Below, in pieces: positions 8,756-63,930 of a stretch of DNA of 64,000 nt. The stretch comes from Escherichia phage UoN_LG358_1. The translations under genes and the position numbers were made by a program. Below the pieces are notes generated by a model that was not told the origin of the DNA, made no database searches, and worked only from the letters and a program-made list of their open reading frames with translations. The stretch's first letter is position 1. Each line of letters starts with the position of its first letter. The stretch is taken from the sequence record OK570374. One strand, given 5' to 3'.

Positions 8756-8785
8756 ATAGTATCATAACAAAACGGAGATGTAAAC
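8756..8785 (-). promoter_or_regulatory. T4-type early promoter (GTTTAC-N18-TACTAT)
   Basis: - strand GTTTAC 8785..8780, TACTAT 8761..8756. Confidence 0.6.
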
Positions 8786-38354: not shown

Positions 38355-38384
38355 ATAGTAACACATCCTTCCATGGATGTAAAC
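38355..38384 (-). promoter_or_regulatory. T4-type early promoter with palindromic spacer (GTTTAC-N18-TACTAT)
   Basis: - strand GTTTAC 38384..38379, TACTAT 38360..38355; spacer contains CATCC-AUGGAA-GGAUG inverted repeat. Confidence 0.6.
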
Positions 38385-48705: not shown

Positions 48706-50031
48706 TTATACAAAGAAAACATCATGGCGGCCACGAGTTGCACCCACATAAAGAAGTTCTAGCTTAAACTTATTATCGCTGCTTACGTGAATACACGGAG
48801 TATAAATGAAACTACTATCTACAGAAATACCCTGAGCTTTATGGAACGTTGAACAAGGTAAAGCTTTAACCTTATGAAATTTTCGTTTAGCATCCCAGAA
48901 TTCTGACCAAGGAGCTTTACCGCCTTTATTCCAGTTTTTATAAGTATCTGCCGTCTTTGCCAAGAAAAACTGAAATTTGTTCATTTCTTGTTCGTCAGAT
49001 ATTACATTAATTTTCTCACGAGCATATTCTTCATCGTCATAAGTTTCTACATCTAAAACCCAGTGACGAATTAGATGTTCACCAGATACTCCCTTTGCTC
49101 CCAAGAATGAAGATGTGTAATCTGCACTTAGAATACGAACATATTGACCATTAGTAAATAATGTTTCATGGAATTTTTTTCCCTCAAATACAAGTTCCCT
49201 CATTAAAGGTTCTTGCATAACAATAACTTCTCCTACTACGAACGCTTCTTCCGTTTGATATAAACGTCTACGAATGATAGAGTTTAATTTATCAACCGAC
49301 TTATTTGTGAATGCGAGCATTCGGTTTTCAAACAAATCTTCCGGTGATTTGACGATACTAAAATATTGCATCATAAAATCTTTAAGTGCCGTTGTACTTG
49401 TAAATCCATGCACACCATGACCATCAACAGTTTTTTCGTAAATCCATGAACCGTTTCTTATATCAGTAGCAACATCAATAATCGGAGCGTTACTGCGCAT
49501 TACTTCAGTAAGATTTAATTGTTTAAAATCTTTATGAATAAAGAAAGGAGATATATGAGCTTCTGTTTCTCCAGGGTCAACCGGACGAATTTGAGCGACA
49601 TCTCCAATAGCGACTATAGTACACCATTTAGGAATTGAAGCCATTAGTATTTTAAATAATTTGCGGTCCCACATTGAAGCTTCGTCACATATTAGCACTC
49701 GGCATGATGCTAAATCTGGCACTTCTTTTTGTTCAAACAACATACTTTCTTCATATGTTGTGGGGTTAATTTTTAAAATTTTATGAATAGTATTAGCTTC
49801 CATGCCGGACAATTTGGTTAATACTTTTTTGGCTGCATGTGTAGGAGCCGTCAAAATAATACCAGTTTCGCCAGTAGAAACTAAATGCTCCATGATAAAT
49901 TTTGTTAACGTAGTTTTACCAGTACCCGCTGGACCGTTGATAGTAACATGGTTTTTCTTTTCTTTTATAGCTCTAATAGTTTCATCAAATGCTAGTTTCT
50001 GGCCAGAAGTCAGCTGCTCAAATGTAATCAT
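48706..50031 (-). CDS. dda: Dda DNA helicase (SF1B)
   Basis: 441 aa; Walker A GPAGTGKTT; ...VLICDEASM...NKSVDKLNSIIRR...FHKAQGISVD...LLYVGATRGRHDVFFV matches recalled T4 Dda. Confidence 0.9.
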   Translation of the reverse strand: MITFEQLTSGQKLAFDETIRAIKEKKNHVTINGPAGTGKTTLTKFIMEHLVSTGETGIILTAPTHAAKKVLTKLSGMEANTIHKILKINPTTYEESMLFEQKEVPDLASCRVLICDEASMWDRKLFKILMASIPKWCTIVAIGDVAQIRPVDPGETEAHISPFFIHKDFKQLNLTEVMRSNAPIIDVATDIRNGSWIYEKTVDGHGVHGFTSTTALKDFMMQYFSIVKSPEDLFENRMLAFTNKSVDKLNSIIRRRLYQTEEAFVVGEVIVMQEPLMRELVFEGKKFHETLFTNGQYVRILSADYTSSFLGAKGVSGEHLIRHWVLDVETYDDEEYAREKINVISDEQEMNKFQFFLAKTADTYKNWNKGGKAPWSEFWDAKRKFHKVKALPCSTFHKAQGISVDSSFIYTPCIHVSSDNKFKLELLYVGATRGRHDVFFV

Positions 50032-50327
50032 ACCACTGATACCCTTTTAACACTTAATGTGTTCATAATTTGTCTGTTCATTCTACTTTCAATTTCAGAA
50101 AGCTTTTTAAACTTCATTTCAACTTTATCGAACCAGAAACGACGTTTCTTAATTGTAGTTTCTACTTTACCGACATTCAATATATGAGTAAGATAAGTTT
50201 TTAGCTGCTCATAATGCTTCACAGCATCATCAAATTTTTCATAGATTGTAGCCTTTCCAGATTCGAAGTACGGGAGTTCAAACCCGTCTTTATCTTTGTA
50301 GACTAACATGTATCCATAGTGCATCAC
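50028..50327 (-). CDS. hypothetical protein (99 aa)
   Basis: ORF upstream of dda. Confidence 0.4.
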   Translation of the reverse strand: MMHYGYMLVYKDKDGFELPYFESGKATIYEKFDDAVKHYEQLKTYLTHILNVGKVETTIKKRRFWFDKVEMKFKKLSEIESRMNRQIMNTLSVKRVSVV

Positions 50328-51106
50328 ATTTTGCCTCGGATAAGTTGTAACAATGTTGCAGAAAGTGGAAGACCTTTTTTCAGCTTCGCTTTATCCAAAC
50401 GAGATAAATTTTGGAAACGAGTAAGACCTTGAATAATAATATCATAATCTTTCACGGTGATTTCTGCTTTGCTATTCTTTTTGGATGCAGCGCCTGAAGT
50501 TACAGCTTCAGAAGACGGGTATTTTTCAAATATTCTCTTTAATGTTTTAATTCCGCCTTTGATGCGAGTTTCTAGAGAATCGCGAGTGTCTTTCTGTATT
50601 CCGGCTTGCTTAAGATGACTGCGGCGGGCCTGCACGTTTGCCCAAATGCGTTTAGCTTCTTCACGGCGGACACCGGAAATTTTAGACCAATCAGGCTCTT
50701 TGTTCCAATCATGAGTTTCTAATACAAAGTCAGAATGATTGAGGTCAACAGCAGGTTCTACAACTTTGTTTTTAGAGTCAACGGCGGAAACGATGCGCGC
50801 AGCTAGTTCTTCTTGCTTTTTAATGAGGTCATCAATTTCGAAGTTGGCGCGCAGTTTATTGTACTTCATTTTAACAGGAATAACGTTGCCTTCTACATAT
50901 CCTTTGTTGTTATCAAACCGCTCGAGAGTCATTTGGTCAGGTCCAAGTTCCTTCTTGAACTTTTCTCCTGAATATGCACAAGTATCTTGCTCCATGATGT
51001 TCATCAAGTACTTCAAAGAAAGATTAAATTCTTTACTTCTAGAAGAAGCACTTTTGTATGTATGAACCAAACGTTGAGCGATAACAATTTCACGAGGCAT
51101 GGCCAT
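50324..51106 (-). CDS. hypothetical protein (260 aa), in the position of T4 srd
   Basis: ORF with early promoter upstream; identity not verified. Confidence 0.4.
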   Translation of the reverse strand: MAMPREIVIAQRLVHTYKSASSRSKEFNLSLKYLMNIMEQDTCAYSGEKFKKELGPDQMTLERFDNNKGYVEGNVIPVKMKYNKLRANFEIDDLIKKQEELAARIVSAVDSKNKVVEPAVDLNHSDFVLETHDWNKEPDWSKISGVRREEAKRIWANVQARRSHLKQAGIQKDTRDSLETRIKGGIKTLKRIFEKYPSSEAVTSGAASKKNSKAEITVKDYDIIIQGLTRFQNLSRLDKAKLKKGLPLSATLLQLIRGKM

Positions 51107-51161
51107 AACGATATTCCTTATTTGCTTTTTATGCGAAGATGGTATAATGGTTTCAAGGATT

Positions 51162-51191
51162 ATTCTAATACACTCTATCCGGAAAGTAAAC
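51162..51191 (-). promoter_or_regulatory. early promoter-like element (GTTTAC-N18-TAGAAT)
   Basis: - strand GTTTAC 51191..51186 with weaker -10. Confidence 0.4.
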
Positions 51192-51193
51192 GG

Positions 51194-51826
51194 TTAGAAT
51201 GAATAAAAATCCAAATGATATACAGTATATGACGGAGATAAAGGGTCATACTGTAACTCTTCAATCTCCACTATCTCAAATTGTGTTCCAATAGGGAACA
51301 TCCATTCATCTTCTCCATTGACCATTTCAAGTTTATCCAGTCTTTCATCAAAAATAAAATCTGGGTCTATGCTGTGCATAAATTCTGTGTCTGGCGCAGC
51401 CAGAAGCATATTCAGTGCGTGCTCTTGATAGTTAAAAGCAAATGGGCAATTACGTAATGACAAAATAGTATGAGTACCATACACACTCCCTCCAGCGAAT
51501 TGTCTTGCTGTGGAAAAATCTGATGTAAATGACGTAACTCGGTCATCAGCAATAATTCTTCCTACAGCCATATTTTTCAACCAAGCTTCGGTACGTTTTG
51601 ACACTCCTCTGTAGAGTTCAACTGGAACGTCAGAACTAATATGCTTACGTATAATTTTGTCCAGTTCTACATGCAAAGTTTTGTCAATTTTATCATTCAT
51701 ACACTGCCAAAGTATGCTCTGTTCAAAATCACTGAACATCTTAATTTTTTCTTCATACAATCCATAGAGATTGTTATCAACTATGTTACAAACGATTTCA
51801 TTAAGCTGAGAATTTGTGTATAACAT
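51194..51826 (-). CDS. ADP-ribosyltransferase (ModA/ModB-like)
   Basis: 210 aa; R-S-E triad candidates: LYRGVS, FTSDFSTA, FEIVEIEE; position of T4 modA/modB. Confidence 0.55.
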   Translation of the reverse strand: MLYTNSQLNEIVCNIVDNNLYGLYEEKIKMFSDFEQSILWQCMNDKIDKTLHVELDKIIRKHISSDVPVELYRGVSKRTEAWLKNMAVGRIIADDRVTSFTSDFSTARQFAGGSVYGTHTILSLRNCPFAFNYQEHALNMLLAAPDTEFMHSIDPDFIFDERLDKLEMVNGEDEWMFPIGTQFEIVEIEELQYDPLSPSYTVYHLDFYSF

Positions 51827-51852
51827 AATAGCCTCCGTAGTTTACAGAAGCT

Positions 51853-51882
51853 ATCATAACACATTTTGACTGGGATGTAAAC
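51853..51882 (-). promoter_or_regulatory. T4-type early promoter (GTTTAC-N18-TATGAT)
   Basis: - strand GTTTAC 51882..51877, TATGAT 51858..51853. Confidence 0.55.
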
Positions 51883-51884
51883 GG

Positions 51885-52079
51885 TTATTCTGTCCACGGA
51901 GCCCAAGGAGGAGGGTCTAACCAGATAGAAGAGAGTTCTTCTACGAAAGTGTCGTTGAGTTTTACACCGTGCCGTAAGGCAAGAACAAAAAGCTCTTGTT
52001 TGATTTCAGCACGTCGGTTGCCAAATGCTTCTGAATTTTTTGACTGGTCTTCTTCAAATAAATCAAATAAATCCGACAT
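51885..52079 (-). CDS. hypothetical protein (64 aa)
   Basis: ORF. Confidence 0.4.
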   Translation of the reverse strand: MSDLFDLFEEDQSKNSEAFGNRRAEIKQELFVLALRHGVKLNDTFVEELSSIWLDPPPWAPWTE

Positions 52080-52564
52080 TACATACCTCTGATGTATTTG
52101 ACAGCAGTTACGGACATAGTTTTTTCTTCAAATCCATTACGACGAATTCCAGTATCATTAAAATGATGCCAAATGAATTTTTCCAATTCAACGATGTGTT
52201 CAGGAGTATTTACAATAAATTTTTTGAAGATTTTTGTGCCATATCCATCTGTATGACACAAAGCTTCGCTAAAATTGAATTCTGGAAAAATGTATTTCTG
52301 ACTGAGCAAAGTTTCTACCATACCAAACGGTGAATTTTCGCATTTGTCGATATTACAATCATGAATGATTTCTAACAATGCATTTTCGGGAATTCGCATT
52401 TTCATAAACTGCTTTTCTAGATTATTATAATGCTCGTTTGAAAAAGGTGCAGGTTCACCATACTGAGTTAGAACAACTTCAAACTTTTCTCGAGTTTCTT
52501 CTACTCGTCGATTAGTTCTTTTATAGAATTTCACTACAAATGACTTTGTTTTCATATTTTTCAT
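52079..52564 (-). CDS. hypothetical protein (161 aa)
   Basis: ORF. Confidence 0.45.
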   Translation of the reverse strand: MKNMKTKSFVVKFYKRTNRRVEETREKFEVVLTQYGEPAPFSNEHYNNLEKQFMKMRIPENALLEIIHDCNIDKCENSPFGMVETLLSQKYIFPEFNFSEALCHTDGYGTKIFKKFIVNTPEHIVELEKFIWHHFNDTGIRRNGFEEKTMSVTAVKYIRGM

Positions 52565-52578
52565 GATATTCTCTTATT

Positions 52579-52782
52579 TTATGACTTATCGCCGTAAATG
52601 TTAGTTAAAAGCTTTTTAGCTTCTATTGAAATACGTTTAGCTTCTTGTTCATTGCGCCAATTTCTAGCGTATTCTTCCGCTTCATGTTGAAGTTCTTGCT
52701 CAACTTTAGCAACCCATTCATCATCTAAATGAGTAGGTGTTTCAAACCAATTTTTGAATTCTTCGTACCATCGTTTAATCAT
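52579..52782 (-). CDS. hypothetical protein (67 aa)
   Basis: ORF. Confidence 0.4.
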   Translation of the reverse strand: MIKRWYEEFKNWFETPTHLDDEWVAKVEQELQHEAEEYARNWRNEQEAKRISIEAKKLLTNIYGDKS

Positions 52783-53018
52783 AACCAGGATGTCCCAAAG
52801 CGAATAACAGATTTTTCACCTACAAAGTGAAAGTGAGCCTCATATACGACACGTAAAGCAGTACCTTCCTCACGGTAGCAATGAATAAAGATGTCTACTA
52901 AATCATACAGATTTGGGCTATTTGTGATAAACAAATGTTCATGAATTAAGCGATTTGCAATAAGACTATTGATACCACCAACTTCTTCAACTGGCTTCAT
53001 CCAGTTAGATGTTTTCAT
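52779..53018 (-). CDS. hypothetical protein (about 79 aa)
   Basis: start moved to the internal Met; the track's N-terminus runs through the soc terminator hairpin. Confidence 0.4.
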   Translation of the reverse strand: MKTSNWMKPVEEVGGINSLIANRLIHEHLFITNSPNLYDLVDIFIHCYREEGTALRVVYEAHFHFVGEKSVIRFGTSWL

Positions 53019-53054
53019 AATATTATCCTCATTTGATAAAAGAATTATATCATA

Positions 53055-53082
53055 TCGTTTAAAAGCAAAAAAGGGACTCCCG
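53055..53082 (-). terminator. intrinsic terminator after soc (GGGACUCC-UUCG-GGAGCCCC + U-run)
   Basis: hairpin and U-tract in - strand sense 16 nt after soc stop. Confidence 0.6.
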
Positions 53083-53097
53083 AAGGAGCCCCTGCAA

Positions 53098-53343
53098 TCA
53101 ACCACCTGGTACTACTGGCGGTACGCCTTTAAACATATCAGCGTTTTTGGCAATCCAAGCGTCTCTTTGAGCTTCTTCAAAAACGGTAGAATACGCCGCT
53201 TTTTCGGAAGGGAAGAGTTGATAATGAGAACCAGCAATTTGATGCACGTCGGAGTAAAGCTTAAAAGCTACAGAAACTTCCATACCTTTTACTTCACCGT
53301 CGGCATTTGTATGGTCAAACGTTTTTACGTTAACATAACTCAT
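53098..53343 (-). CDS. soc: small outer capsid protein Soc
   Basis: 81 aa; ...YVNVKTF...EVSVAFKLYSDVHQIAGSHYQLFPSEKAAYSTVFEE matches recalled T4 Soc. Confidence 0.8.
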   Translation of the reverse strand: MSYVNVKTFDHTNADGEVKGMEVSVAFKLYSDVHQIAGSHYQLFPSEKAAYSTVFEEAQRDAWIAKNADMFKGVPPVVPGG

Positions 53344-53370
53344 GTAATTCTCCTTTGTTGATTACATGAG

Positions 53371-53378
53371 TATTTATT
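53371..53378 (-). promoter_or_regulatory. candidate late promoter for soc (AATAAATA, 7/8)
   Basis: near-consensus late motif 28 nt upstream of soc ATG. Confidence 0.3.
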
Positions 53379-53529
53379 AATAGTTATTTAAAGCCTCTAC
53401 TATATCTGCTATGATATCTTCAGAATCGCCAATAAGTTCTCGAAGAGATTTGTACTTATCTTCTGGACTTAGAGGATTTAAGCCCCAATATTTTATTAAA
53501 GCATTTTCAATATCAGAATATGAAATCAT
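53377..53529 (-). CDS. hypothetical small protein (about 50 aa)
   Basis: read from - strand (MISYSDIENALIKYWGL...); ATG overlaps gene 56 stop. Confidence 0.3.
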   Translation of the reverse strand: MISYSDIENALIKYWGLNPLSPEDKYKSLRELIGDSEDIIADIVEALNNY

Positions 53530-54087: not shown

Positions 54088-54297
54088 ATGTCTGAAAAAA
54101 TTAAAACCCCAGAAAATAAAAATCTGAAGTCTCAATTCGTTGAGAACAAAGGTAAATTAATCTTAGTTGGAGTTATTACAGCTGTAATAACAGCATGGAA
54201 CTATATTATCATCCCTTTCGCATTAGCATATGGGTTTACTTTACCTCCAATTCCATTGGATAAAGTTATTCATTTCATTATGCTCGGAGGATTTTAA
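54088..54297 (+). CDS. small membrane protein (69 aa) on the + strand
   Basis: strong SD AGGAGG 6 nt before ATG; two hydrophobic segments; no - strand ORF exists in this 230-nt interval. Confidence 0.35.
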   Translation: MSEKIKTPENKNLKSQFVENKGKLILVGVITAVITAWNYIIIPFALAYGFTLPPIPLDKVIHFIMLGGF

Positions 54298-57005: not shown

Positions 57006-57035
57006 ATAGTATCACATCCTTCCATGGATGTAAAC
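57006..57035 (-). promoter_or_regulatory. T4-type early promoter with palindromic spacer
   Basis: - strand GTTTAC 57035..57030, TACTAT 57011..57006. Confidence 0.6.
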
Positions 57036-63900: not shown

Positions 63901-63930
63901 ATAGTAACACATCCTTCCATGGATGTAAAC
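63901..63930 (-). promoter_or_regulatory. T4-type early promoter with palindromic spacer
   Basis: - strand GTTTAC 63930..63925, TACTAT 63906..63901. Confidence 0.6.

Follow-up and report, generated by a model that had tools for sequence, protein, structure and literature searches.

A single, predicted ModB-like ADP-ribosyltransferase gene in the early region of an S16-type phage

The ADP-ribosyltransferase (ART) set of bacteriophage T4 consists of three enzymes, and the genes for two of them, modA and modB, lie next to each other. In the stretch of DNA analyzed here (64,000 nucleotides of sequence record OK570374, Escherichia phage UoN_LG358_1; hereafter, the window), the initial annotation had noticed one ModA/ModB-like gene at the place where T4 has this pair. 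Such an arrangement raises the question of which of the two enzymes, if either, the lone gene represents, and whether its product can be expected to be an active ADP-ribosyltransferase.

A Mod-family gene at the T4 modA/modB position

The ORF call returned an ATG-initiated ORF of 210 aa on the minus strand, precisely where the initial annotation had placed it (51194–51826; Table 1). The DNA around it (window positions 50000–53400) is 99.9% identical to that of Salmonella phage STP4-a and 99.5% identical to that of S16, both of which belong to the genus Gelderlandvirus of the Straboviridae, and the public protein collection holds a protein 100% identical to the ORF product (P0001). The RefSeq record of STP4-a labels the gene (STP4a_016) “RNA polymerase ADP-ribosylase”; in S16, the same gene (AEO97013.1) carries the label “ADP-rybosylase; gp11; ModB”. 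The gene, its family assignment, and the ModB label are already known in GenBank/RefSeq for these two phages. Judged from its sequence, the ORF is very probably the single Mod-family gene of a Salmonella phage of the S16/STP4-a type (Gelderlandvirus), encoding an NAD+:arginine mono-ADP-ribosyltransferase of ~24 kDa with the R-S-ExE signature.

When compared by BLASTP, the 210-aa protein was 40% identical to T4 ModB over 187 residues (138 bits, E 8e-46) and 31% identical to T4 ModA over the full length (74 bits, E 3e-21); the score between the two T4 proteins themselves was only 60 bits. Its match to phrog_832 (E 1.4e-43, 149.8 bits) scored above those of both T4 ModB (143.6 bits) and T4 ModA (116.4 bits), and each of its database homologues (33 of 33) carries the precomputed family assignment PF26816.1. 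As an exhaustive HMMER search through 1.84 billion representative proteins found only 38 related clusters, nearly all with members of 160–230 aa, the Mod family is small and compact. Scanning the 210-aa protein against Pfam and NCBIfam yielded sub-threshold matches only (DRAT, 0.074; XopAI, 0.15). This result is uninformative, because T4 ModA and T4 ModB likewise match nothing in the Pfam and NCBIfam sets scanned. That neither the 210-aa protein nor the two T4 enzymes hit a significant Pfam family is due to the absence of PF26816, the precomputed family of all the database homologues, from the set scanned.

The order of genes, taken from the annotation of STP4-a, S16, and T4 and from BLASTP of the neighbors, is dda, dda.1, srd, mod, modA.2, modA.3/mrh, srh, (gp14.1), soc, 56, 61, which is the order in T4. 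The mod gene sits between srd and modA.2, within the early region extending from dda to gene 61, and the claim that it occupies the T4 modA/modB position is, thus, borne out. The flanking ORFs between 51885 and 53018, which the initial annotation had left unassigned, can mostly be named: T4 homologues exist for three of the four (modA.2, modA.3/Mrh, and Srh). Taken together, the full-length homology to T4 ModA and ModB, the match to phrog_832, the R-S-ExE signature (see below), the synteny, and the existing GenBank annotation uphold the original call of a single ModA/ModB-like ADP-ribosyltransferase gene.

Table 1. Features predicted in and around the mod gene, given in positions of the window.
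Feature	Position	Strand	Remarks
Second early promoter, GTTTAC-N18-TAGAAT	51162..51191	−	Starts just past the mod stop codon
Mod-family (ModB-like) ADP-ribosyltransferase CDS	51194..51826	−	210 aa; equals S16 gp11 / STP4a_016
Codons E172-D173-E174 (GAA GAT GAA), ExE in GEDEWMFP	51305..51313	−	Family conservation
Codon S99 (TCA), first Ser of S-x-S/T (S99-F100-T101)	51530..51532	−	Invariant in 34 representatives
Codons R73-G74 (AGA GGA), NAD-binding Arg of R-S-ExE	51605..51610	−	Invariant in three family alignments
Shine-Dalgarno sequence GGAGG	51832..51836	−	5 nt upstream of ATG, read from sequence
T4-type early promoter, GTTTAC-N18-TATGAT	51853..51882	−	Best sigma-70-like site in the region, 10/12 matches, extended TG
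modA.2 homologue	51885–52079		Match to T4 modA.2, E 1e-15
Mrh/modA.3 family	52079–52564		PF24070, E 1.3e-40
Srh	52579–52782		E 2e-12 to T4; phrog_2441, 1.2e-30
ORF 52779–53018	52779–53018		phrog_6057; the only one of the four flanking ORFs without known function

Next to mod, the Srd homologue is encoded on the minus strand (50324–51106; phrog_1400, E 5.6e-88). Its N-terminal ~100 residues also matched PHROGs of HNH endonucleases and endonuclease VII (E 6e-17 to 8e-9), and Srd, described as an “anti-sigma / RNase E activator”, may hold a degenerate HNH-like domain. Farther along the locus, a strong hairpin resembling an intrinsic terminator (minus strand, 53072–53093; 9-bp stem with six GC pairs, followed by a T-run) lies just downstream of soc (53098–53343) and ahead of gp14.1; records of related phages have a terminator annotated at the corresponding place. 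Between gene 56 and the primase gene 61, a lone plus-strand ORF of 69 aa (54088–54297; gp16.1 of S16, annotated as hypothetical) is surrounded by early genes that are all on the minus strand, and the C-terminal half of its product is hydrophobic and membrane-like.

Only one copy of mod had been noted initially, and this held: tblastn with T4 ModA, T4 ModB, and the ORF itself found no second Mod locus in the 64-kb window, and the record of the S16-like phage vB_SenM-AKM_NP4 (100% identical) contains one Mod place genome-wide. A single Mod copy is common among T4-like phages and not unusual. Mod matches were present in 1080 phage records, with 1781 Mod places in total, and copy number was surveyed by genus in 60 records sampled from the 1080. 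Within this sample, records with two places came from Escherichia and Shigella phages (those checked were Tequatrovirus, Mosigvirus, and Dhakavirus), and records with a single place included Gelderlandvirus, Moonvirus (Citrobacter), Karamvirus, Jiaodavirus, Tegunavirus, and Krischvirus; wherever examined, the single-place genera had the same synteny. A lone Mod gene flanked by srd and modA.2, as here, is also found in Serratia phage LC53, Enterobacter phage PG7, and Citrobacter phages CkP1, Moon, and Merlin. These other single-Mod phages differ from the present one in host range and by sequence divergence (the Mod protein of CkP1 is 63–65% identical to the one studied here), but are alike in architecture. 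For LC53, one “modB” (gp19), with identities of 30.5% to T4 ModA and 42.5% to T4 ModB, and an “absence of ModA” were reported (PMC10132071); these identities are nearly those of the window protein (31% and 40%). As a discovery, the present gene carries little weight, because it is annotated already and a single-modB arrangement has been published for another T4-like phage. Gelderlandvirus also encodes an Alt homologue (48% identity, full length; located outside the window), and its ART set appears to consist of Alt and one Mod.

Catalytic signature and relation to other ADP-ribosyltransferases

In the family alignments, the R-S-ExE signature of the window protein is intact (R73/G74, S99, and E172-x-E174). 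M1, R73, G74, and S99 do not vary among 34 family representatives, which extend down to ~23% identity; E172 and E174 do not vary in the alignments of close homologues, and their conservation across the 34 representatives is at least 90%. The initial annotation had sought the R, S, and E residues in LYRGVS, FTSDFSTA, and EIVEIEE. The first of these motifs (residues 71–76) stands, as it contains the invariant R73-G74. The second (residues 100–107) is one residue off, the true serine being S99 (in TSFTS), directly before that string. The third (residues 184–190) has to be abandoned, as it is not conserved except for I185 (invariant in the close-homologue alignment); the family-conserved ExE is, instead, E172-D173-E174 in GEDEWMFP (residues 171–178).

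This ExE aligns with E171-Q172-E173 of T4 ModB and with E163-Q164-E165 of T4 ModA, and R73/G74 and E174 correspond to R73/G74 and E173 of T4 ModB. Double mutation of R73/G74 in T4 ModB is described as abolishing both ADP-ribosylation and RNAylation (PMC10468400), and E173 is reported to be essential (bioRxiv 10.1101/2025.07.11.664405). In general build, the window protein is close to the RNAylating T4 ModB (P39423): the lengths are 210 and ~207 aa, R73-G74, S99, and ExE are at the same or adjacent positions, the N-terminal motif FxDFEQSxLWQCM is common to both, and both genes are early, each immediately downstream of modA.2. It differs from T4 ModB in being more acidic (pI 4.6 versus 5.3; 17 versus 26 Lys+Arg), in that its gene has no adjacent paralogue, and in the host, which is Salmonella here.

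Profile searches against the wider ART superfamily, named as a check in the initial annotation, gave a mixed result: the motifs align collinearly with those of ART families, but every match is marginal. When 177,635 PDB sequences were searched with the Mod-family profile, the best match was the Arg-specific ART Vis (4xzj; E 0.016, which is marginal); one stretch of the alignment pairs Y-R-G and S-x-S with Y-R-G and S-T-S, and a second pairs ExE with E-A-E. The ART-like effector XopAI came next (E 0.27), and the PDB links as a whole were marginal (E 0.016 to 0.47). A single-sequence PDB search with the 210-aa protein gave no match at E ≤ 10, and its single-sequence AlphaFold model, with a pLDDT of 32, was too low in confidence for a fold search. 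Among 34 Mod members scanned against Pfam, the only recurrent families were DRAT (11 of 34; best 4.9e-5) and PF01129 (2 of 34), both below the gathering thresholds. The ART domain of T4 Alt is a member of PF03496 (5.8e-36). Global hhalign of the Mod family with an eight-phage alignment of the Alt PF03496 domain aligned all three motifs (E 0.0011, at a probability of only 8%); hhalign of Mod alignments with the single T4 Alt sequence aligned the ExE segment alone, at a probability below 1%. Phrog_832 was rejected as a bridge between Mod and Alt, because Alt falls in phrog_802 and others.

Irrespective of these scores, Vis (4xzj), XopAI, T4 Alt (PF03496), and DRAT (PF07357) have their motifs in the same order as Mod: Y-R-G, S-x-S/T, E-x-E, and a hydrophobic stretch plus Pro. 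The counterpart of S99-F100-T101 in the alignments is S-T-S in both the Vis toxin and the ART domain of Alt, and the ExE of the window protein aligns with that of Vis, XopAI, and Alt. The likeness in sequence to Vis, XopAI, Alt, and DRAT is marginal and confined to the neighborhoods of the motifs. Unlike these, Mod proteins are minimal, single-domain enzymes of ~200 aa; their synthesis takes place in the infected cell, and domains for secretion, translocation, or capsid targeting are absent. Membership in the ART superfamily is, thus, supported mainly by homology to the biochemically characterized T4 enzymes and by the motif pattern, with which the more distant matches are consistent but marginal.

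Relation to T4 ModA and ModB

The relation to the two T4 enzymes was examined with NJ trees of 11 and 50 sequences and by pairwise scores. T4-type ModA is among the weaker matches of the window protein (T4 ModA, 74 bits; the ModA-type representative P0050, 62.9 bits). In the tree of 50 sequences, T4 ModA and P0050 form a clade of 100% bootstrap on a long branch, and the window protein lies outside it, grouped with CkP1 and P0002 (100%), Serratia X20 (79%), and EcS1 (71%). At the deep nodes, bootstrap values range from 2 to 13%, and the grouping of the window protein with T4 ModB reaches at most 13%. T4 ModA and the window protein do share phrog_832, the R-S-ExE signature, and a gene position directly upstream of srd, but T4 ModA represents a separate, fast-evolving lineage. 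In particular, its N-terminal motif has diverged, whereas the form FxDxEQSxLWxC is common to the window protein and T4 ModB. Overall, the sequence comparison supports placing the window protein among the core, ModB-like Mod enzymes and outside the T4-type ModA lineage. Whether it is a strict orthologue of ModB or of ModA, and hence which targets it has, cannot be read from the sequence, given the deep bootstraps of 2–13% and the equal scores with the two Dhakavirus paralogues (154 and 154 bits for IME08).

In Dhakavirus (IME08) and Mosigvirus (NBG1), both Mod paralogues fall into the core group with T4 ModB, T4-type ModA alone being divergent and lying apart. In these genera, “modA” and “modB” are labels by position, and the genes that bear them may, perhaps, not be orthologous to their T4 namesakes.

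An alternative, which we regard as doubtful but worth stating, is that the window protein is an unduplicated generalist, combining ModA-type activity (on RNA polymerase alpha) with ModB-type activities (on S1 and translation factors, possibly including RNAylation), and that the T4 pair arose by a later, lineage-specific duplication and subfunctionalization. Extended, just as tentatively, to all the phages concerned, the lone Mod of the S16-like phages and of the other single-copy genera would be such a generalist, and the pairs of T4 and of Dhakavirus/Mosigvirus would be independent, lineage-specific duplications with subfunctionalization. In the sample compared, most other family members have the window protein as their best match outside their own paralogues (T4 ModB, 138 bits; the IME08 paralogues as above; the two NBG1 paralogues, 164 and 139 bits; PG7 Mod, 160 bits; Kp15882 Mod, 118 bits), which counts for this alternative because it is expected of a slowly evolving, ancestral-like sequence. 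Several T4-like genera being single-copy with the same synteny points in the same direction, and so does the grouping of the Dhakavirus and Mosigvirus paralogues with T4 ModB, with T4 ModA as outlier, which suggests more than one history of duplication or divergence. All of this is, however, comparative evidence, and the low deep bootstraps are compatible with loss of one paralogue, too. Moreover, Alt, which is retained, also modifies RNA polymerase alpha and could cover the RNA polymerase function without any ModA activity of the lone Mod. If the generalist reading were true, S16 gp11 would offer a minimal, naturally occurring system for studying what in the sequence makes a Mod protein competent for RNAylation.

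It is unlikely that the window protein is instead a functional equivalent of T4 ModA, which would modify Arg265 of RNA polymerase alpha in both subunits and shut down early and host transcription, with little modification of S1 and the ribosome and little RNAylation. The slot adjacent to srd is the place of modA in T4; in Dhakavirus IME08, the best full-length tblastn match falls on the gene closer to srd, which is annotated as modA; the RefSeq label names RNA polymerase as the substrate; and the tree does not settle the place of the window protein relative to the paralogues. Similarity to T4 ModA is, however, only about half that to T4 ModB (74 versus 138 bits), and both the exclusion from the long-branch, 100%-bootstrap clade of T4-type ModA and the N-terminal motif common to T4 ModB and diverged in T4 ModA argue against such equivalence.

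Early expression, selection, and proposed role

The T4-type early promoter of mod lies 27 nt upstream of the ATG (Table 1). GTTTAC is the early −35 sequence of T4 (PMC1524935), and T4 modA and modB are early units with their own promoters (PMC10468400). Because GTTTAC-N18-TATGAT and GGAGG-N5-ATG are present upstream and a second promoter follows the stop codon, the mod gene appears to be an early unit with its own promoter, too. That second promoter is predicted to drive srd and to mark the 3′ boundary of the Mod unit. The pattern GTTTAC-N18-TAnnAT occurs at 15 sites in the window, compared with 0.26 expected, and 15 of 15 are on the minus strand.

Compared with the orthologue of phage CGG4-1, dN/dS of the mod gene is 0.09; the gene is, therefore, under purifying selection. 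It is full length in 14 of 15 closely related records. In the CGG4-1 orthologue (NC_031065.1, 2424–3056), TGG is replaced by TAG at codon W82 (window positions 51581–51583), and two CDS fragments are annotated. As dN/dS beyond this stop is still 0.066, the stop would either have arisen very recently, as a natural knock-out, or be a sequencing error; it may also mean that mod is dispensable under laboratory conditions. Altogether, it is highly improbable that the gene is a remnant, inactive or in decay (a pseudoenzyme or a relic that the phage can do without), or that the ORF is due to chance: the premature stop in CGG4-1 and the lack of a significant match in the Pfam set scanned (where T4 ModA and ModB match no model either) stand against fully intact catalytic residues, low dN/dS both overall and past the stop, a dedicated promoter with a Shine-Dalgarno sequence, and full length in nearly all close relatives, and both a chance ORF and a pseudogene were rejected on dN/dS, intact motifs, and the gene's own promoter.

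For the preferred reading, a core ModB-like enzyme, the following course of events can be proposed, largely by analogy with T4. Judging from its promoter sequence, mod would be transcribed early by the host sigma-70 RNA polymerase and, if T4 biochemistry is a guide, the protein would be made in the first minutes of infection. ExE-type ARTs of the R-S-ExE clade transfer to arginine. As in T4 ModB, NAD+ would be bound via R73 and the S99-x-T101 strand, and E174, like E173 there, would catalyze cleavage of the nicotinamide–ribose bond; E172 would steer transfer to the guanidinium groups of arginines, as T4 biochemistry suggests. The substrates would be proteins of the host gene-expression machinery, as in T4. 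Since the window protein is far more similar to T4 ModB than to T4 ModA, its targets would most likely be of the ModB type, that is, ribosomal protein S1 and further S1/OB-fold proteins, along with rL2, EF-Tu, and trigger factor, and NAD-capped RNA could possibly serve as a donor as well (RNAylation). To our knowledge, T4 ModB is the only enzyme known to RNAylate proteins. Its targets are S1 (at R139/R142), rL2, and other OB-fold proteins, and it accepts NAD-capped RNA; when it is inactivated, burst size falls about fourfold and lysis is delayed (PMC10468400). An accessory but fitness-relevant role like that of T4 ModB would fit both the purifying selection and the possible natural knock-out in CGG4-1. 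Together with the virion-delivered Alt homologue, Mod would form a host-takeover set of two ARTs in place of the three of T4.

The practical value of the window protein is modest: it would be a naturally occurring enzyme of the ModB-like kind, encoded by a Salmonella phage and sharing 40% identity with T4 ModB, and could serve as a comparison point for the residues that set the use of NAD-RNA and the choice of targets. It could also help to find out if RNA polymerase and the ribosome are both still modified by phages that have a single Mod.

The 15 early promoter sites span positions 8756–63930 of the window (e.g., 38355–38384, 57006–57035, and 63901–63930). Three of the 15 are near-identical 30-mers (GTTTACATCCATGGAAGGATGTG[T/A]TACTAT), which suggests duplicated promoter cassettes.
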